Assembly (NCBI GenBank): GCA_038249195.1
Contig: JBBRWM010000001.1
Span: forward strand, 395,489 to 459,488
DNA: 64,000 nt
Direction: 5' to 3'
Source: Actinomycetota bacterium
GTDB taxonomy: Bacteria; Actinomycetota; UBA4738; HRBIN12
The notes under the pieces were generated by a model. The model was not told where the DNA came from and did not search any database. It worked only from the letters and a program-made list of their open reading frames with translations. Shown piece by piece: positions 8,213-23,838 of this stretch. Both the position numbers and the translations under genes were made by a program. The stretch's first letter is position 1. Every line of letters starts with the position of its first letter.

Positions 8213-9094
8213 TCAGGAGGGCGGCGCGACGTAGCGCGCGACCGAGAAGAGGCCGGCCTCGCGCTCGAGGATCCAGGTGGACCCCTTCTGCCATCGAGGA
8301 GGATCTTGCATCGGGAGCCCGCGCTCGGCCATGTGAAGGACGACCGACGGGATCACGTCGCCGTGCGTGCTGATGACCACGGCGCCCGCGGCGCCGCGCA
8401 AGAACGCGAGGACGGCGGGCAACGATGCGCCTTCCGCGAGCGAGTCGTCCTCCTCCACGCTCAGGCGTCGCGCGATCGCGAGCGGACGCACGGTCTGCAC
8501 GCATCGATCGAACGGACTCGACACGATGCGGTCGACCCTTCGTTCCTCGAATACTTCGACGAGCGCCTCGGCCTGTCGTCGGCCCTTCCCCGTGAGGGGC
8601 CGCAGGCGGTCGTCCTCGGTCCAGGCCTCCCGGTCCCCCGCCTTCGCGTGGCGAACGAGGTACACCGGAGCGTCGAAGGCGAGCATCTTGTGGACCACGT
8701 CGCGGTCGCGAGGGTGGGTGAGCGCTGCGAGCGCCTGCTCGGGAGGCATCCACCGCAGCCGGTCCACCTCGGCGTTGGGGACGAACCCGCCGCTCGCGGG
8801 ATACATCAGCCAGTAGCGGACCACCTTGGGCCGATCGAAGCGGTCCCGGTACCGCACCTGCGTGACCTCGGGCCCGAGCTCGCACCGCAGTCCGGTCTCC
8901 TCGCGGACTTCCCGCAGCGCAGAGGCCACGTCGATCTCCCCCTCATCGGCCTTGCCCTTGGGTAGGGTCCAGTCGTCGTACCGGGGACGGTGCACCAGCG
9001 CGATCTCGGGCCCCTGCGGCCCGCGCCGTCGCACCACGCCTCCGCCGGCACGTACCTCGAGCTCGCCGCCCTGCAGATCGGGAAGGCTGCTCAT
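8213..9094 (-). CDS. NUDIX hydrolase fused to histidine phosphatase domain (MutT1-like)
   Basis: The N-terminal Nudix box (GGVVRRRGPQGPEIALVHRPRYDDWTLPKGKADEGE...REVREETG) is followed by a phosphoglycerate-mutase-family RHG motif (VYLVRHAKAG). The same two-domain architecture and ppk1 adjacency occur in M. tuberculosis MutT1. Confidence 0.8.
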   Translation of the reverse strand: MSSLPDLQGGELEVRAGGGVVRRRGPQGPEIALVHRPRYDDWTLPKGKADEGEIDVASALREVREETGLRCELGPEVTQVRYRDRFDRPKVVRYWLMYPASGGFVPNAEVDRLRWMPPEQALAALTHPRDRDVVHKMLAFDAPVYLVRHAKAGDREAWTEDDRLRPLTGKGRRQAEALVEVFEERRVDRIVSSPFDRCVQTVRPLAIARRLSVEEDDSLAEGASLPAVLAFLRGAAGAVVISTHGDVIPSVVLHMAERGLPMQDPPRWQKGSTWILEREAGLFSVARYVAPPS

Positions 9095-9095
9095 C

Positions 9096-10589
9096 TCATG
9101 GCCGCCAGAATCGATACTTCTTGGGCCGCAGGGCCTTCCACGCACCAGGCCACGCGGAACGCGCCTCGGACTGCGCGAGGTGCTCCAGCCCAGCCAGCTC
9201 TCCGGCCACGAACGCGCCGCGCGCCGCGGTCCCGCCCGCCTGGGCGCGCAGCCAAGCGATGGCCACGACGGCATCCTGGTGCTCACCGAGGACGGTCTGC
9301 AGGTCCGCCGCGCGACGGGCGAACCGGCGGGCAGGCTTGCCGAAGATCGGGGTCATCGCCTCCGCGGCGTACCGGACCCGTTTCGCACGGATCCGCGCCT
9401 TGTGAAGCTCTCCGTCGGTCGACGCGGGGCCGAGCTCGCGGCAGATCCGCCGCAGATGGGCCCAGGGCCCCTCCATGAGTTCCCCCATGAACTCGTCGGC
9501 GGGGCGTCGCGTGAACTCGGGCAGCACCGCGGGCTCGGCCGCGGCGGCGACCACACGGTCGAGCAACGAGAGGTAGCGCGGTTCGCGCATCGCCGACATG
9601 AGGTCCATGCGGGCCGCGTCCCGCTCCGTGCGCACGCGATCCAAGAGCTTAGGAGCCGCCTCGACGTCGTCGTCCGGAAGCGATCTGATCCGCAGGCGGA
9701 GGCGTTCGTCCAACACGTCGAGGTCCCGCACGGTCCCCAACTCCCGGCCGAACCACTCCAGTTCCTCTCGCAGGTCCGCGACCCACGAGGGATCCAGGAG
9801 GGACCGATACGTCCGAAGGTCCGAGCGCAAACGCCGGGTCGCCACCCGCGCCTGGTGCACCGCCTCCGGATCCTCGCCCAACCGCACGCCCGCGTCGTGA
9901 CGAAGCATCCGCTCGGCCGAGCCCGCGATGGACGCGCGCACGACGTCGACGACGGCGGCGCCGGGCACGGGCTCGGCGGTGTGTACCTCGGGGGCTTCCG
10001 CCGAACGCGGCTGAAGGGCTCGCACGAACTTGGGAACCTCGCTGCGAGCCTCCGTCCCGCCGGAGTCCAGACGCGCCACGATCGATCTCAGGACATCGTC
10101 GTCGGCGTCGGGGGCGAGCTCGACCTCGACCTCGCGGAAGCGCCCGGCGACCCGTCTCCCGTCCAGTACCGACACCTCGTCGTCCACGACCTCCGCGACC
10201 CGACCGTTGCCGTTCACCTCGATCCCCAACCGACGGCGCACCGTCTGCAGGCGAACGGCGAGCCGCACGGGCGCGGTGCGAACGTACCCGCGCACCAGAT
10301 CCACCGCGCCTTCCGGGGGCCGTCCCGGGCCCGCCTCGAAGGAACGCTCGTCACGATCGAACCGCCCTTCGTTCACCGAGATCGGCAGCTTGACCGTCCA
10401 GCCCTCCCCCGTCCGGTACCGGAGAGCGCACCCCCATCGCGCGAGCCGCAGATCGGGTGTGTCGTAGTAGCTCGCCATGAACCGGCTCGAGCCCTCGTCG
10501 ACGGCGACGGCGCCGGGCACGACCTCGGTGAGATCGGGGATCTGGAACATCGGCCCCACCGCGAGCTTGACCTCACGCTCGACGGTCAT
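9096..10589 (-). CDS. CYTH (triphosphate tunnel metalloenzyme) + CHAD domain protein
   Basis: N-terminal CYTH (EREVKLAV...). The C-terminal CHAD helical domain carries conserved His/Arg (HQARVATRRLRSDLRTY ... HKARIRAKRVRYAAE). Its ATGA overlap with the ppk1 stop suggests an operon. Confidence 0.85.
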   Translation of the reverse strand: MTVEREVKLAVGPMFQIPDLTEVVPGAVAVDEGSSRFMASYYDTPDLRLARWGCALRYRTGEGWTVKLPISVNEGRFDRDERSFEAGPGRPPEGAVDLVRGYVRTAPVRLAVRLQTVRRRLGIEVNGNGRVAEVVDDEVSVLDGRRVAGRFREVEVELAPDADDDVLRSIVARLDSGGTEARSEVPKFVRALQPRSAEAPEVHTAEPVPGAAVVDVVRASIAGSAERMLRHDAGVRLGEDPEAVHQARVATRRLRSDLRTYRSLLDPSWVADLREELEWFGRELGTVRDLDVLDERLRLRIRSLPDDDVEAAPKLLDRVRTERDAARMDLMSAMREPRYLSLLDRVVAAAAEPAVLPEFTRRPADEFMGELMEGPWAHLRRICRELGPASTDGELHKARIRAKRVRYAAEAMTPIFGKPARRFARRAADLQTVLGEHQDAVVAIAWLRAQAGGTAARGAFVAGELAGLEHLAQSEARSAWPGAWKALRPKKYRFWRP

Positions 10590-12661
10590 GACGCCCCCAG
10601 GGCCCGGGCCACGGCGAGCTCCTGGAGCGTCCGGTGGGCGTTCACACCACGCGTCGTGGGCACGCGGTGCCAGTTCCCTCCTCCGTCAAGCTCCCACGCC
10701 AGTTCGTCGTCCTCGAGCTCGATGCGCAGCACCTCGTCGACGCGCACCTGCAAGGCGGGGTCGAGCACGGGCGTGAGCGCCTCCACGCGCCGGTCGAGGT
10801 TGCGCGGCATCATGTCGGCCGACCCGATGAGGTAGTCGTAGCCTCGATCCACGCTGCCGAACCGGTAGACCCGCGAGTGCTCCAAGAATCGTCCCACGAG
10901 CGATCGCGCTCGGATGGTCTCCGACATGCCGGGCACGCCCGGGCGCAGACAGCAGATCCCGCGAACGAGCAGGTCGATCTGCGCGCCCTGCTGCGAGGCC
11001 TCGTACAGGGCGTCGATCAGGTCGACGTCCACCAGGCTGTTCATCTTCAGCACGATGGAGCCATCCTCGTGCTGCGCCTCGCGCCGGATCAACGCCTCCA
11101 GGCCCGGACGCATGGACACCGGCGCGACCAGCAGCTTGCGGTACTCGCGCTGTCGGCTGTACCCCGTGAGGAGGTTGAAGAGGTCGGTGAGGTCGGCGCC
11201 GAGGTCGGGGTCGGAGGTGAGCAGCCCGAAGTCCTCGTAGAGGCGCGCCGTCTTTGGGTTGTAGTTGCCCGTTCCGATGTGGGCGTAGCGTCGGATGCCC
11301 TCCTCTTCCTGGCGCACGACGAGGCAGGTCTTCGCGTGCGTCTTCAGCCCCACCACCCCGTACACGACGTGGACGCCCGCGTGCTCCAGCTCGCGAGCGA
11401 AGGTGATGTTGGCCTCCTCGTCGAAGCGCGCCTTGAGCTCCACCAACGCCACGACCTGCTTGCCGGACTGCGAGGCTCGGATCAAGGCCCTGATGATCCG
11501 GCTCTCCGACGACGTCCGATACAGCGTCTGCTTGATGGCCAACACGTTGGGATCGGCGGCCGCCTGCGCCACGAACTCCTCCACGGTGCCGGAGAACGAC
11601 TCGTAGGGATGGTGCACCAAGATGTCGTGATCTCGCAGCGTGGCAAGGATGTCCGGGGGGACGTCGGTCGCCTGCAGCTCGAGGGGTGTGACCGGCGTCC
11701 AGGGATCGTCCTTCAGGTCCGGGCGGTCCAGCTCGACGAAGAACCAGAGCCCCGCGGTGTCGATCAGTCCCTCGGTAACGAACACCTGCGGCTCGTCCAG
11801 ACCCATCTCCCGCATGAGCAAGCTCCGCACCTCGTCCGTCATGCCCGGATCGATCTCCAGGCGGATCGGGGTGGCGCCCCGCTGCCGTCGCTGCAGGACC
11901 GTTTCGATCGCGGCCAGGAGGTCATCGGCCTCCTCCTCCTCCACCTCCACGTCGGCGTCGCGCGTCACACGGAACACGTGGAACGTGACGAGGTCCATGC
12001 CTGGGAAGAGCTGGTCGAGGTGCGCCGCGATGACCTGCTCGAGCGGAACGAAACGCTCCCCGTCGGGCAGCGCCGTGAACCGTGGCAGCAACGGGGGGAC
12101 CTTGACGCGCGCGAACCGACGCAGACCCGTGTGAGGGTCGCGCACCACCGCGGCGAGGTTCAGGGAAAGGTTCGAGATGTAGGGGAACGGATGCGCAGGA
12201 TCCACGGACAGAGGCGTGAGCACGGGGAAGATCCGGTCGCGGAACCGCCGGGCGAGGAACGCCCGGTCGTCCTCGTCGAGCTGTTCCCAGTCCATGATGC
12301 GGATCCGGTGTTTCTCGAGGGCGGGCTTCAGCTCCGTGAGCCACACCGCCTCCGCCCGGTCGGACAGTTCCACCACTTTGCGGCGGACGCCCTCCAGCTG
12401 TTCGGCGGGGGTCATCCCATCCGGGGCAACGACCGTCACTCCCGCCTCGACCTGCTCCTCGAGCCCGGACACCCGGATCTGGAAGAACTCATCGAGGTTG
12501 CTCGCGTAGATCGAGAGGAACCTCACCCGCTCCAACGGCGGCCGATCCGGATCCTCGGCCAGCGCCAGGACCCGCGCGTCGAACTCCAGCCACGACAGCT
12601 CGCGGTTGATGAAGCGGTTGATCGCGGAGCCGGCGAGATCAGGGAAGGCGCTATCGGTCAT
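10586..12661 (-). CDS. ppk: Polyphosphate kinase 1
   Basis: 691 aa with full-length PPK1 similarity (NRELSWLEFDARVL, LDEFFQIRV, two PLD-like HKD regions). Confidence 0.95.
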   Translation of the reverse strand: MTDSAFPDLAGSAINRFINRELSWLEFDARVLALAEDPDRPPLERVRFLSIYASNLDEFFQIRVSGLEEQVEAGVTVVAPDGMTPAEQLEGVRRKVVELSDRAEAVWLTELKPALEKHRIRIMDWEQLDEDDRAFLARRFRDRIFPVLTPLSVDPAHPFPYISNLSLNLAAVVRDPHTGLRRFARVKVPPLLPRFTALPDGERFVPLEQVIAAHLDQLFPGMDLVTFHVFRVTRDADVEVEEEEADDLLAAIETVLQRRQRGATPIRLEIDPGMTDEVRSLLMREMGLDEPQVFVTEGLIDTAGLWFFVELDRPDLKDDPWTPVTPLELQATDVPPDILATLRDHDILVHHPYESFSGTVEEFVAQAAADPNVLAIKQTLYRTSSESRIIRALIRASQSGKQVVALVELKARFDEEANITFARELEHAGVHVVYGVVGLKTHAKTCLVVRQEEEGIRRYAHIGTGNYNPKTARLYEDFGLLTSDPDLGADLTDLFNLLTGYSRQREYRKLLVAPVSMRPGLEALIRREAQHEDGSIVLKMNSLVDVDLIDALYEASQQGAQIDLLVRGICCLRPGVPGMSETIRARSLVGRFLEHSRVYRFGSVDRGYDYLIGSADMMPRNLDRRVEALTPVLDPALQVRVDEVLRIELEDDELAWELDGGGNWHRVPTTRGVNAHRTLQELAVARALGAS

Positions 12662-12787
12662 AGGCAGGCCTCCTATCGTAGGGGTCGCGCCACCAACGCT
12701 GCAATGGTCATCCGCCGCCTGACGCTCGCCTCAGCGGGCGTCTGGCATGATGTCGCCCTGCAACCGCCGGGAGCGACAGGAGGCCGC

Positions 12788-13411
12788 TTGAAGCTCAAAG
12801 TTTCCCAGCGTCCCGAGGCATTCTTCGACCTCTTCGTCGAGTCCGGGGAAAACCTTCGCGCCGCCTCGAGCGAGCTCCGGGCGATGGTCCACGATTACCA
12901 AGACGTCGAACTGAAGGCTCGAAGGATCCAAGAACGGGAGCACGAGGGCGACGAGGTTACCCACGCCATCATCCGCCGCCTCAACACCACGTTCGTCACC
13001 CCGATGGACCGCGAGGACATCCACCAACTGGCCACGGCGCTGGACGACGTGATGGACGCCATCGAGGCGGCCGCAGATCTCTTCGTACTGCATAACATCG
13101 AGACGCCGCTGCCCGAGATGAAGCTGCAGGTCGACGTGCTCGATCGTGCTGCCGAGCAGACCGACCAGGCCCTGCGCGCGTTCCGCAGCCTCAAGCGAGA
13201 CGAGCTCGAGCCCTATTGGGTCGAGATCAACAGCTTGGAGAACGAAGGGGACCAGATCTATCGGCGCGCGGTGGCCGGCCTGTTCTCCGGCGACTACCGA
13301 GCGATGGACGTCCTGCGCTGGAAAGAGGTCATCGAGACGCTCGAGGAGGCCCTCGACGGACTCGAGAACGTCGCGAACGTGATCGAATCGGCGGTGCTCA
13401 AGCACGCCTGA
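12788..13411 (+). CDS. DUF47 (PhoU-superfamily) phosphate-transport-associated protein
   Basis: TTG start about 5 nt after AGGAGG. The sequence (AFFDLFVESGENL...GDEVTHAIIRRLNTTFVTPMDREDI) matches the DUF47/Pit-accessory family. It sits in-frame inside a longer spurious ORF antisense to ppk. Confidence 0.8.
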   Translation: MKLKVSQRPEAFFDLFVESGENLRAASSELRAMVHDYQDVELKARRIQEREHEGDEVTHAIIRRLNTTFVTPMDREDIHQLATALDDVMDAIEAAADLFVLHNIETPLPEMKLQVDVLDRAAEQTDQALRAFRSLKRDELEPYWVEINSLENEGDQIYRRAVAGLFSGDYRAMDVLRWKEVIETLEEALDGLENVANVIESAVLKHA

Positions 13412-13418
13412 ACGGGTG

Positions 13419-13646
13419 TCACGTCCTCGCGTCTCGACGGGCGTTCTTCCTCGGTGTGTGGGCAGGGCGGAGCGGCGTGGCCTTGCGGAGGGACCGTTCC
13501 TCCAGGTACAACGCGACAGCCCAGAACAGCGCCAGCCCGGCCGCGAACAGGTTGACCCATCGATACTCAGGCGGCGTGGGCTCCAAGATCAACAGGCAAA
13601 GGAACGCCAGGGCGGCGAAGAATAAGGGGCGGCGTCCGATCCTCAC
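13419..13646 (-). CDS. Small predicted 2-TM membrane protein (75 aa), translationally coupled to pitA
   Basis: GTG start overlaps the pitA stop (GTGA). VRIGRRPLFFAALAFLCLLILEPTPPEYRWVNLFAAGLALFWAVALYLEERSLRKATPLRPAHTPRKNARRDART has two hydrophobic helices and a basic tail, with high GC3. Confidence 0.35.
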   Translation of the reverse strand: MRIGRRPLFFAALAFLCLLILEPTPPEYRWVNLFAAGLALFWAVALYLEERSLRKATPLRPAHTPRKNARRDART

Positions 13647-14632
13647 GTGACCGCCTTGATCGGTAGGTACACGAGATAGCTGATCACGAACGCCCCCGGG
13701 ATCGTCAGGACCCAGGCCCACACGACCCGTTGGGCGACCCCCCATCGCACCGCCGACAAGCGCTGCGTGGTGCCCACACCCACGATGCCGCCCGTGATCG
13801 TGTGCGTGGTCGACACGGGGATCCCCGCGAGGGTAGTGGCCATGATGGTGACCGCCGCCGCCGACTCGGCGGCCACCCCCTGCGCCGGCTGGATCTTGGT
13901 GATCTTCGAGCCCATCGTGTGAACGATGCGCCAGCCCCCGAACAGCGTGCCGAGCGCGATCGCCGTGTGCGCACTCAACACCACCCAGAGCGGGACACCC
14001 TCGGCCTTGGTGCGTAGGCCGTTCGCGACGAGAAGAGCGAACACGACGCCCATCGTCTTCTGCGCGTCGTTGGCCCCATGGGCGAGGCTGAACGCCGCGG
14101 CCGAGAACAACTGCCCGTGGCGGAAGCCACGATGCAGCCGCTCCTGGCGTTTGGCCCGATGGAAGAGCCAATAGATCGCCACCATGAACGTGAATCCCAA
14201 CAGCAGCCCCAGCACGGGGGAGAGCACGATGAATACCGCGATCTTCTGGAACTCGGATGCAACGAGGGCCCCCCAGCCCGCCTCCGCCACCGCCGCGCCC
14301 GCCATCGCCCCGACGAGAGCATGGGAGCTGGAGGTCGGAAGGCCGAACAGCCATGTGATGAGATCCCAAGCGATCGCTCCCGCGAGGCCCGCGAAGATCA
14401 CCCCGTTGTTGAAGACCCCCGGCTTGACCGTGTTCGCGATCGTAGCGGCCACCTTCGTGCCGAACACGAGGAACGCAACGAAGTTGAAGAATGCCGCCCA
14501 TGCCACGGCTTGGCGAGGAGACAGCACCCGCGTCGACACGACGGTGGCGATCGAGTTGGCCGCATCGTGGAAACCGTTGAAGAAATCGAACCCGAACGCC
14601 ACCACGACGATGACGGCGATCGCAGGCGTCAT
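13643..14632 (-). CDS. pitA: Inorganic phosphate transporter, PiT family
   Basis: PHO4/PiT signatures (GFHDAANSIATVVST ... GANDAQKTMGV), about 10 TM helices. Start chosen at MTPAIAVIVVV; 4-nt overlap with the upstream DUF47 gene. Confidence 0.9.
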   Translation of the reverse strand: MTPAIAVIVVVAFGFDFFNGFHDAANSIATVVSTRVLSPRQAVAWAAFFNFVAFLVFGTKVAATIANTVKPGVFNNGVIFAGLAGAIAWDLITWLFGLPTSSSHALVGAMAGAAVAEAGWGALVASEFQKIAVFIVLSPVLGLLLGFTFMVAIYWLFHRAKRQERLHRGFRHGQLFSAAAFSLAHGANDAQKTMGVVFALLVANGLRTKAEGVPLWVVLSAHTAIALGTLFGGWRIVHTMGSKITKIQPAQGVAAESAAAVTIMATTLAGIPVSTTHTITGGIVGVGTTQRLSAVRWGVAQRVVWAWVLTIPGAFVISYLVYLPIKAVT

Positions 14633-15246
14633 GCGAACTTGAGCGCCACGGACTCGAGCGTGTTCGCGATGTCCTCGCAACGGTCCACAGCCGCCTCAGC
14701 CTCGCGGAGCAGATCCTTCCACATGATGACCTCGAGAGGTCGGAAGTCTCCCGAGTACAGGGTTGCGACCCCGCGGCGATACACCCAGTCCCCTTCGCGT
14801 TCGTTCCGCTTGATCTCGGCGATGGCCTTCTCCAGTCCTTGGAAATGCCTGAGGTCCCTGACGGCGAACGCCACGGACGTAGCCGTCCGGCGAAGGACGT
14901 CGACGAGCTGGAGGAACTGCGGGAGCGGCTCGCGGATCTGGAGGAGCACGAGCAGGTCGGCCAAAGCCTCTTCGGAATCCAAGACATCGTCGAGCGAGGA
15001 CGCGAGTGCGTGGATGTCCTTACGATCGATCGGGACGACGAAGGTCGTATTCAGGAGGTTCAAGATCTGGTGGGTCAGGTCGTCGCCGTCGTGTTCGAGA
15101 TCGCGGATCCGGTCGCCATAGCCTTCCGCGTTACCCAGGTCGGTGATCATCGCGGAGAGGTCCACGACCCCCCGGACGACCGTATCGGCGAGCTGATCGA
15201 ACAGATCGAAGAAGGCGAGTTCGCGGGGGATGACTTGGAACGGCAT
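14629..15246 (-). CDS. DUF47 (PhoU-superfamily) Pit accessory protein
   Basis: LAFFDLFDQLADTVV...GDDLTHQILNLLNTTFVVPIDRKDI. This is the classic DUF47 partner immediately upstream of pitA. Confidence 0.85.
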   Translation of the reverse strand: MPFQVIPRELAFFDLFDQLADTVVRGVVDLSAMITDLGNAEGYGDRIRDLEHDGDDLTHQILNLLNTTFVVPIDRKDIHALASSLDDVLDSEEALADLLVLLQIREPLPQFLQLVDVLRRTATSVAFAVRDLRHFQGLEKAIAEIKRNEREGDWVYRRGVATLYSGDFRPLEVIMWKDLLREAEAAVDRCEDIANTLESVALKFA

Positions 15247-15302
15247 GTCCTCGAACCCTCCCGCCAGCCGATAGCGGAGCGACGGTACCGGGCGGCAGCG
15301 GA

Positions 15303-15342
15303 GGTGTCCACTGGGTGAACACGAAGGGAACGAGAGGTGTCG
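15303..15342 (-). promoter_or_regulatory. PHO box array (four 11-nt direct repeat units) upstream of DUF47-pitA
   Basis: The minus strand reads CGACACCtctc GTTCCCTtcgt GTTCACCcagt GGACACC, i.e. four units in strict 11-nt register. The third is the canonical GTTCACC. The array is centred about 70 nt upstream of the DUF47 start. Confidence 0.55.
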
Positions 15343-16038
15343 CTAATCGACGAACTTGTAGCCCAACCCTCGCACCGTGATCAGGTGCTCGGGGTCGTGC
15401 GGATCGTCCTCGACCTTCTGCCGGATCCGCTTCACGTGCACGTCGAGCGTCTTGGTGTCCCCCACGTAGTCACTCCCCCACACGTCTTCGATCAAGAACA
15501 GGCGGGTGAGCAGACGATCCTTCCGGCGCAGGAACGCCTCCAGCAGCTCGAACTCCTTGGGTGGGAACGCCACGAGGTCCCCCTGGACCGATACCTCGTG
15601 GCGGGCCACGTCCATCCGCACGGGACCGCCGGTGAGGACCTCCTCGGGCGGAAGCGCGGTTCCCATCGCCGCCCGGCGCAGGTGCGCCCGGACCCGCGAG
15701 ACCAGTTCGCGCACCGAGAATGGCTTCGTGACGTAGTCGTCCGCCCCCAATTCGAGCCCCGTCACCTTGTCGGCCTCGGCGTCCTTGGCCGTGACCATGA
15801 TGATCGGCACGGCGGAGTCCTGACGGATGAGGCGGCACACGTCCAGTCCGGACATCTCAGGGAGCATCAGGTCCAAGATCACGAGCGCGGGATGGAACTC
15901 GGCGAAGCGCTCCATGGCCCGTCGTCCGTCCGAGGCGACTGCCACATCGAAGCCTTCCCGCTCGAGGTTGTAGCGGACCGAGTCGGCGAGCGACTCTTCA
16001 TCTTCAACGATCAGGATCCGCGGCGACGGGCCGTTCAT
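15343..16038 (-). CDS. regX3: OmpR-family response regulator, RegX3/PhoP-like
   Basis: RILIVEDEESLADS...LDLMLPEMSGLDVC...VPIIMVTAKD...LELGADDYVTKPFSVRELVSRVRAHLRR is near-identical in pattern to mycobacterial RegX3. ATGA overlap with phoU. Confidence 0.9.
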   Translation of the reverse strand: MNGPSPRILIVEDEESLADSVRYNLEREGFDVAVASDGRRAMERFAEFHPALVILDLMLPEMSGLDVCRLIRQDSAVPIIMVTAKDAEADKVTGLELGADDYVTKPFSVRELVSRVRAHLRRAAMGTALPPEEVLTGGPVRMDVARHEVSVQGDLVAFPPKEFELLEAFLRRKDRLLTRLFLIEDVWGSDYVGDTKTLDVHVKRIRQKVEDDPHDPEHLITVRGLGYKFVD

Positions 16039-16715
16039 GCATCCTCGTGCGAGGCGTCCGTGAACTCCCGGAATTCCCCCGTGATGAGGTAGGCGACCTG
16101 CTCGCCGATGTCCACCGCGTTGTCGCCCACACGCTCGAGGGCGCGGGCCGCGACGTTCATGTGCATGCCCCAGTCCAGCGCGGCGGGATCGTCGGCGAGC
16201 TTGAGCGCCTCGAGATGCGTCGCGCGATTCAGGCGGTCGACGGGGTCGTCCATGGTGGTGAGGGTGCCGCACAGTTCGAAATCCCTGCTGGCGAGGGCCT
16301 CCATCGCGGTGCGGACCATCCGCACGACGATGGTCCCCATCTCCCCCAGCTGCTGACGCAGCGGATCGCTCCCAGGGAGGCTCGACGTGGCGAGATGGAG
16401 CTTGGCGACGTTCACCGCCTGGTCGCCGATGCGCTCCAGGTGCAGGCAGCAGTGCATGAGCGTCGAGACGAGCCGCAGGTCGGAGGCCACGGGTGCTTGG
16501 AGAGCGAGCAACGCCAGCACGCCCTGATCGATCTGCAGGTAGAGGGTGTCGATCGCGTCGTCGCCAACGATCACCCGCTTCGAACGCCCGGCGTCGTTCT
16601 CGACCAACGCCGCCACCGCCTCGTGTACCGCGTTCCCGGCGAGTTCGCCGAGCCGCTGCAGGTCGCCCTCGAGGTTGTCGAGCTCTTCGTGGAACTTCTT
16701 GCGTGTTCCCTGCAT
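16035..16715 (-). CDS. phoU: Phosphate-specific transport system regulator PhoU
   Basis: 226 aa with two PhoU repeats (ERIGDQAVNVAK ... ERVGDNAVDIGE). Confidence 0.9.
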   Translation of the reverse strand: MQGTRKKFHEELDNLEGDLQRLGELAGNAVHEAVAALVENDAGRSKRVIVGDDAIDTLYLQIDQGVLALLALQAPVASDLRLVSTLMHCCLHLERIGDQAVNVAKLHLATSSLPGSDPLRQQLGEMGTIVVRMVRTAMEALASRDFELCGTLTTMDDPVDRLNRATHLEALKLADDPAALDWGMHMNVAARALERVGDNAVDIGEQVAYLITGEFREFTDASHEDA

Positions 16716-17473
16716 CAGCCGAACCTCCCGGTCACGTAGTCCTCCGTTCGATGGTCGTCGGGATTTGTGAACACCTTCTCTGTGGGCGCGAACTCGACGG
16801 CCTCGCCCAGCAGCATGAAGAGGGTCCAGTCCGAGACGCGGGAAGCCTGTTGCATGTTGTGCGTGACGATCACGACCGTGTACTGCTCCTTCAGCTCGGT
16901 CACGAGCTCCTCGATCCGAAGCGTCGAGGCCGGGTCGAGGGCGGACGCAGGCTCGTCCATCAGGAGCACCTCCGGATCGACGGCCAGCGCGCGCGCCACG
17001 CAGAGGCGCTGTTGCTGACCACCGGAGAGCCGTCCGCCAGGCGTCTGCAGCCGATCCTTGACCTCGTCCCACAGGCCGGCCGATCGCAACGCCTTCTCGG
17101 CCCGATCCTGGAGGTCTGCCTTGGACATCCGGCCGCCCCCCAGCCGCGCGCCCGCGACGGCGTTGTCGAAGATGCTCATCGTGGGAAACGGATTCGGGCG
17201 TTGGAAGACCATCCCGATGCGCCGGCGCACCTCGACCGGGTCGACGTCGGAGCCGTAGATGTCCTGACCGTCGAAGAGGATCTTCCCTTCGACCCTGGCT
17301 CCCTGCACCTCCTCGTGCATGCGGTTCATGCAGCGAACGAGGGTGGACTTGCCACATCCGGACGGGCCGATGATGGCGGTGACCGTCTTCGGCTCGGCCA
17401 CCACGTTCACGTCCTGCAAGACGTGGGCGGCGCCGAACCACGCGTTGAGACCCGATGCTTCGATCCTTCTCAC
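16715..17473 (-). CDS. pstB: Phosphate ABC transporter ATP-binding protein
   Basis: Walker [13 protein letters not shown] signature LSGGQQQRL, Walker B LLMDEP. GTG start overlaps the pstA stop (GTGA). Confidence 0.95.
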
Positions 17474-18360
17474 GAGAGCCTCTTCCGTTGTCGGTGGCTG
17501 ACATAGCGGGCGCCGATCGACAGCGCGAGCACGAACGCGAGCAGCGTGATCGCCCCGCCCCAGGCGATCGTGTGCAGCGCCTCCACGGGCGTTCGAGCGT
17601 ACGCGTACAGGCGCAGCGTCACCGAGTCCGTCGTCTTCGTCGGATCGAAGTTGATGAAGTTGCTGCCCAGGGTGGTGAGCAGGAGCGGCGCGGTCTCTCC
17701 CAGTCCGCGGGCGACGGCGAGCATGATAGCGGTCAGGATGCCTGCTCCCGCGGTGGGGATCACCACCCTCACGATCACCTTCCAGCGCGGTAGCCCGAGC
17801 GCGAGCCCCGCCTCGCGCAGCTCGTTGGGAACCAGACGCAGGATCTCTTCCGTGGCGCGCGTGATGATGGGCCACATCAAGAACGCGAGCGCGAGCGCCC
17901 CGGCGATCGCCGAAAAGCTGCCCATCCACACGACCACCACGGCCCAGATGAACGCGCCGGCGATGATGGACGGGGTGGATAGGAGCACCTCGGCTACGAA
18001 GCGCACCGCGCCGGCGAATCGTCCGCGCCCGTACTCCGCGAGGTACACGGCCGCGAGCAGCCCCAAGGGGATCGAGATGGCCGCGGCCATCCCCGTGATG
18101 ATGGCGGTGCCGATGAACGACTGCACGATCCCTCCCGCCGAGGGATTGAGCGGTCCAGCGGGCTCCTTCGTGAAGAAGTTGACGGTGAGCGCCGACCAGC
18201 CCCGCATCACCACGTAGCCGATGATCAGGGCGAGCGGGATGAAGACGAGGATCGCGCACGCGATCATGAAGACCCCATACGCCCGGTCCTTGGTTCGGCG
18301 GCGCCCGCTCACCTTCCCCGCGAGCAGCGACGGCGCGGTCGCGACGGCAATCGCGCTCAT
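17470..18360 (-). CDS. pstA: Phosphate ABC transporter permease
   Basis: PstA-type permease with the EAA-like motif region ([11 protein letters not shown]). ATGA overlap with pstC. Confidence 0.9.
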
Positions 18361-19397
18361 CGATCCCTCCCTCCGCGGCCCTCTTCGGCCTCCGCGACCG
18401 CCACCTCGACGGTCGCGCTCACGGAGATACGCGGGTCGCGGCCCACGAGGACGCGCGACAGCGCCGCGAACCCGAACGTCAAGGCGATCAGGATCAGCGC
18501 CAGCCCAAGCAAGGCGGAACGATGCAGGCCGACGCTGGTGGCGTCGCGGAAGCTGCTCGCGATCCACGAAGGGATCGTCACGCCGGCGCCGAAGAGGCTC
18601 GTGCTGATCCGCGTGGTGTTGCCGACGAGCAACGAGACCGCGATCGTTTCGCCGAGCGCTCGGCCAAGCCCAAGCATGGTCGCCCCGACGATGCCGCTGC
18701 GCGCATACGGCAGGACCGCGATGCGTGTGGTCTCGTAGCGCGTCGCGCCGATGGCCTTGGCGGCCTCACGGAGGTCTCGCGGCACGGTGGCCACGACCTC
18801 CCGCGTGACCGCCGTGACGATCGGGATGATCATGATCGCCAAGATCACGCCGGCGCTGAACAGGTCCGGACCGACCGTGTTGCCGGAGAAGAGCTTGCCG
18901 ACCACGGGGATCCACCCCAGCGTGGTGTGCATGAACGGCTCGATGTACTTGTCGAGGAACGGCTTCAGGATGAACAGCCCCCATAGTCCGTAGACGATGC
19001 TCGGGATCGCCGCGAGCACGTCGACGAACGTGGCCAGGGGGTTGCTCACCCACCCCGAACGGACCTCGTTGAGCAGCAGGGCGAGCCCTACGGATACGGG
19101 GACCGCCAGCACCACGGCCACGAACGAGGTCACGAGCGTGCCGTACACGAAGGGCAAAGCGCCGAACGACTCCCGCCCCGCCACCGTGTTCCAGTCGGTC
19201 CCCGTGAAGAAGGAGAATCCGAACGTGGAGAAGATCCTGGAGCTGCCGTCGATGAGCTCGAGGATCAGGGCGATCAGCAGCAGGATCAGGCCGGCGGCGA
19301 CCACCGCCGTGGTCCATCTGAAGGCCCTGTCCACGACCTGGGAGCGCCGCCCGATGGGCGGCGCTCCCTCGGCTGCGATCAGGCCGCCTGACTCCAT
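18357..19397 (-). CDS. pstC: Phosphate ABC transporter permease
   Basis: PstC-type permease ([13 protein letters not shown]..., [17 protein letters not shown]). Confidence 0.9.
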
Positions 19398-19404
19398 GGA
19401 ACCC

Positions 19405-20517
19405 CTAGCCGGTCACGTTCGACGATGCTTGGATCGGAGTGCCCTGGTAGGAGACCTTTGCCAGCTGCGCGAGTCCCCCCTGCGCGATCTCCGTCGGTAG
19501 CGGAGAGTAGTTCAACTGCGTCGCCGTGTCCTGACCGGGCCCCAGGGCCCAGGTCACGAAGTCCACGAGGGTCTTCCCCTTGGACTGATCCGTCTGATCC
19601 AGGTAGATGAGCAGGTAGGTCGTGCTCGCGATCGGGTACGCGCCCTCGGCCGGGGAATTCAGGATGTTGGTGTCCGGGCTGATGGGGAACTTCAGGATGC
19701 CCCCCGCGGCGCTGATGCTCTCGATCGACGGTGCGACGTAGGTGCCGTCGTCGCGCTTGATCGCACCCACCCGGAGGTCGCTCTTGAGCGCGAAGTCGAA
19801 CGACAGGTACCCGATGGAGCCCTGCGTCTGGGTCATCGCAGCCGCGACGCCGTCGTTCCCGTCGCCGCCCTGCCCGGCCGGCCACTGGACCGCCTTGTCC
19901 GCACCCACGTCCTTCTTCCACGACGGGCTCTCGTCGGACAGCCACGAGGTGAACACGAACGTGGTCCCGGACTCGTCGGAACGGTGCACGACACTGATGT
20001 CCATGTCGGGAAGGCTGACGCCGGCGTTCTGGCCGGCGATCGCGGAGTCATTCCACTTCGTGATCGTGCCGGCGAAGATGTCGGCCACGGTCGAGCCGTC
20101 GAGCTTCAGCCCGTCGTCGACGCCCGGGACGTTGTACGAGACGGCCACGCCGCCGAGCACCGTCGGGATCTCGATCGCATCGCCAGGGAGGGCCGCGATC
20201 TCGTCGGACTGCAACGGGGCGTCCGACGCGCCGAAGTCGACGGTCTGGGCGGTGAATTGCTCCACCCCACCGCCCGAGCCGATCGCCTGATAGTTGATCT
20301 GCGCGCCCGATTCGACGCTCGGGAAGTCCTGGAACCACTGCTCGTAGATGGGATCGGGGAACGTCGCGCCGGCGCCCGTCAGGGCCACGCCGTCGAAGCT
20401 GCCACCAGACGAGCTCGAACCCGATGAGGAGCTGTCGTTGTTGCTGCTACAGGCGGCGGCGGCCAACGCCAAGATCATCCCCGCCGCGACCACGCTGGCC
20501 CTGGTTCGCTTCACCAT
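19405..20517 (-). CDS. pstS: Phosphate-binding lipoprotein PstS
   Basis: Signal peptide with lipobox (LALAAAACS) and a Ser/Gly-rich linker. PstS fold motifs (TGAGATFP, IAYRSDxSGTT-like HRSDESGTTFVFT). Confidence 0.9.
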   Translation of the reverse strand: MVKRTRASVVAAGMILALAAAACSSNNDSSSSGSSSSGGSFDGVALTGAGATFPDPIYEQWFQDFPSVESGAQINYQAIGSGGGVEQFTAQTVDFGASDAPLQSDEIAALPGDAIEIPTVLGGVAVSYNVPGVDDGLKLDGSTVADIFAGTITKWNDSAIAGQNAGVSLPDMDISVVHRSDESGTTFVFTSWLSDESPSWKKDVGADKAVQWPAGQGGDGNDGVAAAMTQTQGSIGYLSFDFALKSDLRVGAIKRDDGTYVAPSIESISAAGGILKFPISPDTNILNSPAEGAYPIASTTYLLIYLDQTDQSKGKTLVDFVTWALGPGQDTATQLNYSPLPTEIAQGGLAQLAKVSYQGTPIQASSNVTG

Positions 20518-20596
20518 GTCGATCTCGACCTCCTCGTCGTGAGTTGTCCGCCCGTGGGAACGCTAGGAGTTGGGCATGGACACCTGATTGCGCGAG

Positions 20597-20634
20597 CGTG
20601 AACGCAACGTGAACGCCGCTCTCACGATGAACGG
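20597..20634 (-). promoter_or_regulatory. PHO box (PhoP/RegX3-type direct repeats) upstream of pstS, shared with divergent sensor kinase gene
   Basis: On the minus strand there are two perfect heptamers CGTTCAC (core GTTCAC) spaced exactly 11 nt apart, about 80-100 nt upstream of the pstS start. A third, degenerate GTTCATC unit lies 19 nt further upstream. Coordinates +-2. Confidence 0.55.
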
Positions 20635-20692
20635 GCCGGGAACGAGGACAACAGGAGAAGAAGGGGAAGCAGCCGCGACATGAACGGCTCAC

Positions 20693-21895
20693 GTGTCCCG
20701 TCGGGACGGATCGGGCAGACCCTACACTGCCGCCATGGACGGTCTCGGATGGATCGTGGCCGTGGTGGTCGGGGGACTCGCCGTGGCGGCGGGCATCGCG
20801 CTCGGCCGGAGCTCTCGGGCTCACGCCCTGAGCAGGTCGCAGGAGCGAGCGTCCGCGGCCGAGGCGGCGCTCGAGCGCATCGATCGTTCCTCAAAACACG
20901 ACCGACGCGTTCAGGACCTGATCCTGGCGACCATGCAGGAAGGGATCCTGCTGCTGGACGACGGGGGGCGGCTCGCGTTCGCCAACGATGCCGTCGCACG
21001 ACACCTCGGCAGGCGCCCCGCCACGATCCACCAGCTCCTACCCATGGCCGCACGAGATCTGGTCGAACGCGTCGCCGTCACGGGGGAGGGTGAGAGCTGC
21101 GAGGCTGCCTACGGGAGCCCCACACGATGGTTGCGGGTCACCGCGACACCGGCGGGCGCGGACGGGTCGCTGCTGGTGGTCGTTCGCGACGTCACCGAGT
21201 CCCGTCGCATCGAACACATCCGCCGCGATTTCGTCGCGAACGCCTCGCACGAACTGAAGACACCGGCGGCAACCATCCAGGCGGCCGCGGAGACCCTCCA
21301 CGACGCGGCCCAGGACGACCCCGCTGCCGTGCGGCGTTTCGCGACCCAACTCGATCGTGACGCCCGGCGATTGTCCCGCATCGTCGCCGACCTCCTCGAC
21401 CTGTCTCGGCTCGAGACAGGGAGCGAACTCGATCAAGACGTGCGGCTCGAGACGGTCGTCAACGACGAGGCGGGCCGCTTCGAAGCGGCCGCACGGGAGG
21501 CTGGTCTTGCCCTCGTCGTCGACCCGCATCGCGCCGGGCGCGTGCGGGGGTCCTCCCGGGACCTCTCCCTGCTGGTGCGCAACCTCATCGACAATGCGGT
21601 CCGGTACACGCCGCGGGGAGGGACCGTGCGTGTCGAGCTCACCGAGGACGACGACGTGGTCCACCTGTCGGTGTGCGACGACGGGGCGGGGATCCCCACG
21701 AGGGATCTCCCGCGGGTCTTCGAGCGGTTCTACCGCGTGGATCGGGCTCGCTCCCGGGAAACGGGGGGCACCGGTCTCGGCCTGTCCATCGTCAGGCACG
21801 TGGCGGAGAACCACGGCGGCAACGTCCACGTCACGAGCGAGCTGGGCCGAGGGTCGACCTTCGTCGTGACCATCCCGCTCGCGCCGCCCGCCTAG
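20693..21895 (+). CDS. Sensor histidine kinase, SenX3/PhoR-like (TM + PAS + HisKA + HATPase)
   Basis: One N-terminal TM helix, a PAS-like segment, H-box ANASHELKTP, N/G boxes (NLIDNAVRYT, DDGAGIP, GGTGLGLSIV). Divergent from pstS. Alternative ATG start near 20735. Confidence 0.85.
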   Translation: MSRRDGSGRPYTAAMDGLGWIVAVVVGGLAVAAGIALGRSSRAHALSRSQERASAAEAALERIDRSSKHDRRVQDLILATMQEGILLLDDGGRLAFANDAVARHLGRRPATIHQLLPMAARDLVERVAVTGEGESCEAAYGSPTRWLRVTATPAGADGSLLVVVRDVTESRRIEHIRRDFVANASHELKTPAATIQAAAETLHDAAQDDPAAVRRFATQLDRDARRLSRIVADLLDLSRLETGSELDQDVRLETVVNDEAGRFEAAAREAGLALVVDPHRAGRVRGSSRDLSLLVRNLIDNAVRYTPRGGTVRVELTEDDDVVHLSVCDDGAGIPTRDLPRVFERFYRVDRARSRETGGTGLGLSIVRHVAENHGGNVHVTSELGRGSTFVVTIPLAPPA

Positions 21896-21916: not shown

Positions 21917-22597
21917 ATGACCACACTCTTCCTCATCCGGCACGGGCTCACGGGACAGACCGGCACCACGCTGTACGGCCGCACAACGGGGATCGAGCTG
22001 GACCATCGGGGGCAGGAGCAGGCCCGTGTCCTCGCCGAGCGGTTCGCCTCGGTGCGGCTCACGGCCATCTACTCGAGCCCTCTCGAACGCTGCCGGCAGA
22101 CCGTGGAGCCGCTGGCGGCGGCGCATCGCCTCACGGTGGCCGAGCGGCAGGGCCTCATCGAGATGGACGCCGGTTCATGGACCGGGAAGACGCTCGCCCG
22201 GCTGCGGCGGAACAAGGCGTGGGCGCAGGTGCAGACCGCGCCGTCCACCTTCCGTTTCCCCGGCGGCGAGAGTTTCGCGGAGGCGTGGGACCGGGCCGGC
22301 GCGGAGATGGACGCGATCGCGCGGCGCCACCCCCGGGGCCGGATCGCCGTCGCCACCCACGGGGACGTCGCGAGGCTGATCCTCGGTCGGTACCTCGGCG
22401 CTCCCCTTGACGCCTTCCAACGGATCGTGGTCGACACCGCATCCGTCTCTGTGGTCCATGTCGTATCCGGCGGGCGTCCTCACGTGCTGCTGATGAACGA
22501 CGCCGGGGGCCTCGATCGCTTCGGACCCAAGGGCGCGACACCCCCGTGGGAGACGCGTCAGCCGCCCACTCGCGCCGGTAGGAACCTGCGAGGATAG
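21917..22597 (+). CDS. Histidine phosphatase (phosphoglycerate mutase family), MSMEG_4193-like
   Basis: RHG motif LFLIRHGLT and a catalytic His region (IAVATHGDV). It is the first gene of the conserved actinobacterial trio. Confidence 0.75.
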   Translation: MTTLFLIRHGLTGQTGTTLYGRTTGIELDHRGQEQARVLAERFASVRLTAIYSSPLERCRQTVEPLAAAHRLTVAERQGLIEMDAGSWTGKTLARLRRNKAWAQVQTAPSTFRFPGGESFAEAWDRAGAEMDAIARRHPRGRIAVATHGDVARLILGRYLGAPLDAFQRIVVDTASVSVVHVVSGGRPHVLLMNDAGGLDRFGPKGATPPWETRQPPTRAGRNLRG

Positions 22598-22603
22598 AAC
22601 GCC

Positions 22604-23125
22604 ATGGAGCTCGGACCCGTCGATCGCATCACCGCCGATGCCGTGGGCGAACCCGGTGCTCGCACGTTCTACATCCAGGCCCGCCACGGCGATCAAGTCG
22701 TCAGCGTGATCGTGGAGAAGCAACAGGTGCAGCTCCTGGCGGCCTCGGTCCTTGACCTGCTGGCCGACCTCGACGTCGAGACGGGACTCGGGCCCGGCGA
22801 TCAGCTGATGGAGCTGGAGACTCCGGTCGACCCGCTCTGGCGCGCGGGCCGGCTGTCCATCGGGTTCGACCAGGAGCGCCGCCTCTTCCAACTCGAGGTC
22901 GAGGAGTTCCAGCCGGAGGTGGAGGACGACGACCCTCGCTCGCTGCTCGCCGAGGAACCGCAGACGATCCGGATCTGGGCCAGCACCGAGCAGATGCTGG
23001 CGTTGTCCCGCCATGGGTCCGAGGCCGTGGAACGGGGGCGGCCCGCCTGCCAGTACTGCGGGAACCCAATGGATCCGGAAGGACACGCGTGTCCCGCGAT
23101 GAACGGGCACTCGAAGCGGGACTGA
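22604..23125 (+). CDS. DUF3090 family protein
   Basis: ITADAVGEPGARTFYIQ ... C-terminal CQYCGNPMDPEGHAC Cys cluster. Always paired with an SCO1664-family gene. Confidence 0.7.
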   Translation: MELGPVDRITADAVGEPGARTFYIQARHGDQVVSVIVEKQQVQLLAASVLDLLADLDVETGLGPGDQLMELETPVDPLWRAGRLSIGFDQERRLFQLEVEEFQPEVEDDDPRSLLAEEPQTIRIWASTEQMLALSRHGSEAVERGRPACQYCGNPMDPEGHACPAMNGHSKRD

Positions 23126-23838
23126 TCGATCCCGCGGTGCCTCGCGCGCTCGCCCGCGGCGAGCTGACGATCCTTGGACTGATGCCCAACTCGTCCAACT
23201 ACACGTTCCTCACGAAGGCCGAGACCTCCGAGGAGTCGGTCCTCGCGATCTACAAGCCGCGCCGTGGAGAGATCCCGTTGTGGGATTTCCCCGAGGGGAC
23301 CCTCGCGCAGCGTGAGGTGGCCGCCTACGTCGTGGCGCGCGCCCTGGGGTGGCCCAACGTGCCGCCCACGATCCTTCGCGACGGACCGGAGGGGGTCGGC
23401 TCGGCGCAGCTCTTCGTCGCCTTCGACCCGGGGCAGCACTACTTCACCCTGCAGGAGGAGCATGAAGACACGTTCGTCGACGTCGCCCTCTTCGACGCCG
23501 TGATCAACAACGCCGATCGGAAAGGAGGCCACTGCCTCTTGGGCGAGGACGGCTCCATCTTCCTGATCGATCACGGCGTGTGCTTCAACGTGGACGACAA
23601 GCTGCGCACCGTCATCTGGGACCACGCGGGTGAGCCGATCGACGCCGCGCGCCTCGAGGACCTCCGGCGATTCGGCGCCGGGCTCGACGATCCTCGGGAC
23701 CCCGTCGGCGCCGAGCTCGGGGCCCTGCTCGATCCGGAGGAAACGCAGGCGCTGCGCCGGCGCCTGCGATCCCTGATCGCCGGCCGCGTGCTCCCCCGGC
23801 CGGAGCTGGATCGCCCCTTCCCCTGGCCCCCCGTGTGA
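23089..23838 (+). CDS. SCO1664-family protein (PI3/4-kinase-like fold)
   Basis: GTG start overlaps the DUF3090 gene end. Conserved SCO1664/TIGR03843-type regions (SNYTFL, IYKPRRGE, NNADRKGGH, LIDHGVCF). Confidence 0.7.
   Translation: MSRDERALEAGLIDPAVPRALARGELTILGLMPNSSNYTFLTKAETSEESVLAIYKPRRGEIPLWDFPEGTLAQREVAAYVVARALGWPNVPPTILRDGPEGVGSAQLFVAFDPGQHYFTLQEEHEDTFVDVALFDAVINNADRKGGHCLLGEDGSIFLIDHGVCFNVDDKLRTVIWDHAGEPIDAARLEDLRRFGAGLDDPRDPVGAELGALLDPEETQALRRRLRSLIAGRVLPRPELDRPFPWPPV

Follow-up and report, generated by a model that had tools for sequence, protein, structure and literature searches.

In Mycobacterium tuberculosis, the senX3 and regX3 genes are adjacent to one another and lie apart from the pst operon, and phoR and phoP are likewise adjacent in Streptomyces. 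In Mycobacterium smegmatis, it is phoU1, not regX3, that adjoins pstSCAB (PMC12301784). Alphaproteobacteria provide a different design: Caulobacter crescentus carries pstC-pstA-pstB-phoU-phoB as an operon with a PhoB-dependent promoter, leaving phoR as a separate unit (PMC11208175), and Sinorhizobium has a pstSCAB-phoUB operon (PMC8857273). Here we describe a phosphate-starvation (Pho) locus within a 64,000-nucleotide (nt) stretch of DNA (hereafter the window; ≈69% G+C) from an uncultured actinobacterium (assembly GCA_038249195.1, contig JBBRWM010000001.1). In this locus, the gene for a RegX3-type response regulator directly follows phoU in a predicted pst operon, and the gene for a SenX3/PhoR-type histidine kinase is divergent from pstS. 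The gene model, derived from codon-position G+C content and family searches, is summarized in Table 1.

The transport and signaling genes form a compact row on the minus strand. All five of the encoded PstS, PstC, PstA, PstB, and PhoU proteins exceed their NCBIfam equivalog cut-offs, and the N terminus of PstS carries a signal-like sequence containing a cysteine. The five genes are contiguous and leave no room for separate promoters, as only a short gap follows pstS and the remaining junctions are overlaps. The overlapping pattern continues into the regulator gene, and the stretch from pstC through the regulator presumably constitutes one translationally coupled unit, as an earlier sequence-only reading of this DNA had proposed. 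The gene content and order given in that reading for the minus strand hold in our family searches and recur in independent gene calls on related contigs; the cluster is therefore not a product of chance or an assembly artefact.

Table 1. Features of the phosphate locus, in window coordinates. Junctions are with the next gene downstream on the same strand.
Feature	Position	Strand	Evidence or description	Junction
MutT1-like NUDIX/His-phosphatase protein	8213-9094	-	Pfam, NCBIfam	
CYTH-CHAD protein	9096-10589	-	Pfam, NCBIfam	
ppk1	10586-12661	-	Pfam, NCBIfam	
Second DUF47 (PhoU_div) paralogue	12788-13411	+	Pfam PF01865, E 1.7e-26	
Small open reading frame (ORF), 75 amino acids, GTG start	13419-13646	-	Two hydrophobic segments (hydropathy); no Pfam or NCBIfam family	
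Pit/PHO4-family low-affinity phosphate transporter	13643-14632	-	Pfam PF01384, E 3.6e-94	GTGA overlap
DUF47 (PhoU_div) protein, usual Pit partner	14629-15246	-	Pfam PF01865, E 3.6e-24	ATGA, 4-nt overlap
Second predicted PHO-box set	15304-15331	-	Three units, GTTCCCttcgtGTTCACccagtGGACAC, in the gap before DUF47-pit	
RegX3-type OmpR-family response regulator, 231 amino acids	15343-16038	-	Pfam Response_reg and Trans_reg_C	96-nt gap
phoU	16035-16715	-	TIGR02135, 162.9 bits (cut-off 130); two Pfam PhoU domains	ATGA, 4-nt overlap
pstB, ATPase, GTG start	16715-17473	-	TIGR00972, 367 bits (cut-off 343)	TGATG, 1 nt shared
pstA, permease	17470-18360	-	TIGR00974, 255 bits (cut-off 193)	GTGA, 4-nt overlap
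pstC, permease	18357-19397	-	TIGR02138, 281 bits (cut-off 196)	ATGA, 4-nt overlap
pstS, phosphate-binding protein	19405-20517	-	TIGR00975, 345.8 bits (cut-off 205); Pfam PBP_like_2	7-nt gap (read from sequence)
Predicted PHO boxes upstream of pstS	20598-20643	-	Two pairs of 11-nt direct repeats, GTTCCCggcccGTTCAT and GTTCACgttgcGTTCAC	
TACACT, -10-like hexamer	20721-20726	+	8 nt before the kinase ATG	
SenX3/PhoR-type histidine kinase, 386 amino acids	20735-21895	+	Pfam PAS_4, HisKA, HATPase_c	21-nt gap
MSMEG_4193-like phosphomutase, TIGR03847/DUF3090 protein, TIGR03843/SCO1664-family protein	21917-23838	+		

The regulator belongs with RegX3. Its best match among solved structures is M. tuberculosis RegX3 (2oqr; E 2.3e-83, 283 bits), to which it aligns end to end and without gaps at 60% identity over 223 residues; the next best match, MtrA, scores 215 bits and M. 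tuberculosis PhoP 160 bits. The motif around the acceptor aspartate, ILDLMLP, aligns with LLDLMLP in RegX3, and the recognition-helix region, DTKTLDVHVKR, is conserved and nearly identical to that of RegX3. JGI applies the name RegX3 to nearly every close homologue that it names. By comparison, the protein falls below the cut-off of the NCBIfam PhoB model TIGR02154 (221.5 versus 296.2 bits). By its sequence, then, this is a RegX3-type regulator and not a PhoB orthologue.

The kinase consists of one N-terminal membrane anchor (hydrophobic residues 4–24) followed by PAS, HisKA, and HATPase domains, with no external domain. This matches the architecture described for SenX3, which comprises a membrane anchor, a cytoplasmic PAS domain, and DHp and CA domains, and lacks an external sensor (PMC12301784). 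In NCBIfam, the kinase scores highest against PnpS and PhoR without reaching the cut-off of either, and no SenX3-specific model exists; among JGI names for its homologues, many are SenX3, others are generic only, and two are PhoR. Translation probably begins at ATG 20735 rather than at GTG 20693, because an identical 386-residue public protein exists and an independent gene call on its contig uses the same ATG. The kinase is thus SenX3/PhoR-type and divergent from pstS, as had been noted from the sequence, but the accompanying description of it as split off from the operon does not really apply: the gene lies on the plus strand only ≈215 bp from pstS, and the two have an intergenic control region in common. 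Kinase and regulator genes occupy opposite strands with five genes between them, rather than being same-strand neighbors in the manner of senX3-regX3, and they are the only two-component genes that we found in the window.

Both flanks of this intergenic region carry recognizable control elements. Upstream of pstS, two pairs of direct repeats precede a TAGCGT -10-like hexamer located ≈32 nt downstream of them (Table 1), and in the whole 64 kb only the perfect pair matches G[TG]TCA[CT]-N5-G[TG]TCA[CT] exactly, where 0.10 matches would be expected. A second, three-unit set precedes the DUF47-pit genes and has a counterpart at the same position in the closest relative (L001). Across 14 related loci, 17 of the 25 matches with at most one mismatch lie within 350 nt upstream of the pst operon, a zone that makes up 0.9% of the searched sequence (binomial P about 3.5e-29), and 12 of these 14 loci have at least one match there. 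The repeats have the features of actinobacterial PHO boxes, with at least two 11-nt units bearing the core G(T/G)TCA(C/T), oriented with the gene and positioned upstream of Pho genes. They also match three published sequences: G(T/G)TCAcc-n4-cG, the site of RegX3 (Glover et al. 2007, cited by PMC7884335); GTTCACC, the repeat unit of Streptomyces PHO boxes (PMC4415409); and GTTCACnnnnnGTTCaC, which in Microlunatus lies upstream of pstS, pit, and ppk (PMC6754071). The predicted boxes, GTTCAC-N5-GTTCAC, are of the canonical actinobacterial type.

On the kinase side, a TA[CG]ACT hexamer is found 6–11 nt before the kinase start in all 11 sequences compared (the window and 10 related loci). Because this spacing leaves no room for a ribosome-binding site, it suggests that the kinase transcript is leaderless and arises from its own conserved promoter. 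Downstream of the kinase, the window encodes an MSMEG_4193-like phosphomutase and proteins of the TIGR03847/DUF3090 and TIGR03843/SCO1664 families. The phosphomutase-like and DUF3090 genes follow the kinase in every related locus in which that flank is present, and three contigs with independent annotation (L081, L082, and L083) also carry an SCO1664-type gene. Given this recurrence, the kinase gene may be the first of an operon that includes these genes.

To place the locus among its relatives, we aligned the window proteins to 80 loci returned by a scan for PhoU relatives and to two more contigs (L081 and L082) identified through regulator homologues. The nearest named PhoU relatives are from Thermoleophilia, at 44–49% identity. 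The sequence-only reading had proposed searching related genomes for the same split arrangement, and at least 16 independent loci, each from a genome or metagenome of the uncultured Actinomycetota clade to which the window belongs, indeed have the layout; their organisms come from soil metagenomes. The order pst genes-phoU-regulator is found in L001–L004, L006–L016, L021, L081, and L082, with PhoU 52–85% and the regulator 56–87% identical to the window proteins. A divergent kinase is present in the window and in 11 loci (L001, L002, L004, L005, L007, L008, L010, L013, L015, L021, and L082); in L081, the kinase call is truncated. One might suspect a single chance rearrangement or a metagenomic mis-assembly, since the source organism is uncultured and the contig index has no entry identical to the regulator protein. 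This possibility is refuted by the recurrence of the same order in loci from different studies and assemblers and by the presence of the exact kinase together with pst genes on a separately assembled contig, and we regard its probability as negligible.

In seven loci (L002, L003, L005, L008, L010, L013, and L015), PstS, PstC, and PstA are only 23–36% identical to those of the window, whereas PstB, PhoU, and the regulator are 54–78% identical. These values suggest that the transport cassette was swapped for another, with the pstB-phoU-regulator signaling module left in place.

The junction between phoU and the regulator bears on whether the regulator is expressed with the operon. High-GC genomes commonly contain 4-nt overlaps, and long operons often have promoters within them, so the overlaps could reflect genome compaction, with the regulator transcribed mainly alone from a promoter inside phoU and its level uncoupled from that of PhoU. 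Several observations speak against this. Where the regulator start can be placed, the junction ranges from -20 to +4 nt in 13 of 16 loci, and this abutting or overlapping arrangement is kept down to 52% PhoU identity; it also persists where pstS, pstC, and pstA are replaced by a different cassette. Furthermore, the PHO boxes of the operon lie only upstream of pstS, and we found none inside phoU at up to one mismatch. We therefore consider independent transcription of the regulator unlikely and favor its expression as the last gene of the pst-phoU operon.

On this basis, we think it likely that the window carries a locus for Pho control and phosphate uptake, from an uncultured soil actinobacterium of high GC content, that works as follows. 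The SenX3-like kinase, with its membrane anchor and cytoplasmic PAS domain, would be produced separately from its own, probably leaderless, promoter. When phosphate is scarce, the kinase would phosphorylate the RegX3-like regulator, which in turn would bind the GTTCAC direct repeats (11-bp spacing) in the shared intergenic region and drive one long, translationally coupled transcript of pstS-pstC-pstA-pstB-phoU-regX3. Because regX3 would lie in the pst-phoU transcript under the control of PHO boxes, the regulator would amplify itself in step with both the high-affinity transporter and the inhibitor PhoU, tying positive autoregulation to negative feedback. Once phosphate returns, PhoU would push the kinase into its phosphatase mode, by analogy with Escherichia coli and M. 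smegmatis; a model in which PhoU acts on the PAS domain of SenX3 has been put forward (PMC12301784). The second PHO-box promoter would drive DUF47, pit, and the small ORF, and the polyphosphate genes ppk, CHAD, and mutT1 sit alongside.

Certain points weigh against this scheme. Promoters internal to the operon are possible, as is a second Pho-type two-component system outside the 64-kb window. A consensus scan, which is poorly suited to actinobacteria, returned no sigma-70 promoters and no canonical terminators (two terminator-like sites versus 4.1 expected). In addition, L012 has pstSCAB-phoU-regulator and a perfect PHO box with no kinase within 20 kb, so adjacency of the kinase is not obligatory; in that locus, ppk is the divergent neighbor of pstS. 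Finally, the conserved position of the kinase beside the unrelated-looking phosphomutase/DUF3090/SCO1664 trio could mean that it belongs functionally with those genes.

The last two points raise the question of whether kinase and regulator are partners at all. Conceivably, the regulator is served by a distant kinase and the neighboring kinase controls another regulator, perhaps one tied to the phosphomutase-DUF3090-SCO1664 genes, with which the kinase is co-oriented in every related locus and from the first of which it is separated by only 21 nt in the window; retention of the operon in L012 with no kinase nearby would fit as well. We find this improbable, given that the two genes are the sole two-component genes in the 64 kb and remain neighbors in the window and 11 related loci although everything else has been rearranged. 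Moreover, the names of their homologues, SenX3 and RegX3, are those of a known cognate pair, and the kinase has the single anchor, PAS domain, and lack of external sensor that characterize SenX3 (PMC12301784). Pairing of the divergent kinase with the operon-encoded regulator thus remains our preferred interpretation.

Comparison with described systems clarifies how far the layout is new. The sequence-only reading had called the wiring unusual, and it does differ from that of Mycobacterium and Streptomyces; the same design exists, however, in Caulobacter and Sinorhizobium (PMC11208175, PMC8857273). As in those organisms, the regulator gene comes last in the pst-phoU operon, directly after phoU and behind a promoter that is predicted to depend on the regulator, whereas the kinase gene of the locus stands as a unit of its own. 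The window differs from them in having a RegX3-type regulator, PHO boxes of the GTTCAC type, and a divergent kinase with a probably leaderless transcript. Because the phylum is also a different one, the layout most likely arose independently of the alphaproteobacterial one.

With mycobacterial SenX3-RegX3, the locus shares the type of regulator, the architecture of the kinase, the site type G(T/G)TCAcc-n4, and the predicted control of pstSCAB and role of PhoU (PMC7884335, PMC12301784); it differs in that the regX3-type gene is joined to pstSCAB-phoU, with the senX3-like gene on the opposite strand. The 11-nt repeats with the core GTTCAC(C) and the Pst, Pit, and Ppk genes as targets recall the promoters of Streptomyces PhoR-PhoP and of Microlunatus phosphovorus (PMC4415409, PMC6754071). 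Unlike Streptomyces PhoR-PhoP, the window has a different gene layout and a regulator that is much nearer to RegX3 than to PhoP, the PhoP compared being that of M. tuberculosis. We found no paper describing a regulator-after-phoU layout in Actinomycetota. The locus therefore represents a known design built with a RegX3-type regulator and, as predicted, actinobacterial PHO boxes in another phylum, and is unusual only relative to the actinobacterial models.

More distant relatives from the PhoU scan show other arrangements. In Gaiellales-type loci (L017, L018, L026–L029, L036, L039, L042, L044, L047, and L080; for example, L027 7117-10663), the gene for an anchor-less PAS-HisKA-HATPase kinase precedes pstB-phoU by ≈100 nt, pstS-pstC-pstA come next, and an OmpR-type regulator is divergent. 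In Solirubrobacteraceae loci (L070 and L075–L077; for example, L075 10828-11751), an OmpR-type regulator 27–32% identical to that of the window lies ≈150–450 nt downstream of phoU, before ppk. Like the window, both types integrate two-component genes with pstB-phoU and split them between strands. Unlike the window, the Gaiellales type has mirrored wiring, and its proteins are ≈34% identical and not clearly RegX3 or SenX3.

Next to the pst operon lies a second uptake system. Family hits for both systems substantiate the claim that high-affinity (Pst) and low-affinity (Pit) phosphate uptake are co-localised, with the PHO4-family gene preceded by a PhoU_div/DUF47 gene as its partner. Two DUF47 proteins had been assigned to the Pit system, and both are present; the second, however, is encoded on the plus strand and not the minus. 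It begins with TTG preceded by AGGAGG, is convergent with the small ORF, and shares 45% identity with the first. The small ORF itself probably encodes a genuine small membrane protein that acts with Pit, because it recurs after pit in L001, L002, L007, and L016 at 50–74% identity.

The phosphate cluster also reaches further left than the sequence-only reading had placed its boundary, taking in the polyphosphate-related trio of ppk1, CYTH-CHAD, and MutT1-like genes at 8213-12661. These genes are tightly packed, with one 4-nt overlap and one 1-nt gap, and L081 has this trio immediately after the regulator. By eye, the gap between ppk and the second DUF47 gene (12662-12787) contains a single GGTCAT unit and no convincing PHO box before ppk. 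In L021, the interval from the end of the regulator gene to the start of ppk contains a perfect GTTCACCTCCCGTTCAC box (11382-11398), and the position of this box before ppk suggests direct Pho control of that gene in this relative. An Rfam scan of the window gave no match.

In its parts, the cluster reveals no new component or mechanism: it is clade-conserved, mechanistically conventional, and essentially ordinary. One could go further and propose that pstB-phoU has repeatedly come under selection, in this part of the Actinomycetota, for linkage to exactly one two-component partner. This would be the regulator in the window clade and Solirubrobacteraceae, but in Gaiellales the kinase, maybe since co-translation beside PhoU matters. 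We hold this idea to be a long shot. If it were true, a fixed PhoU:regulator ratio could hard-wire positive and negative feedback into one mRNA, or else PhoU or PstB could contact the regulator directly and not the kinase alone.

The value of the locus lies rather in its compactness. Within ≈14 kb, it offers a sequence-defined Pho circuit from an abundant uncultured lineage of soil actinobacteria, comprising sensor, regulator, predicted operator sites, both uptake systems, and polyphosphate genes. It indicates that a design with the regulator after phoU and the kinase separate arose outside the alphaproteobacteria, here with a RegX3-type regulator, and it lends itself to comparisons of how autoregulation of the regulator alone, when coupled to the PhoU/Pst brake, shapes the response to phosphate.

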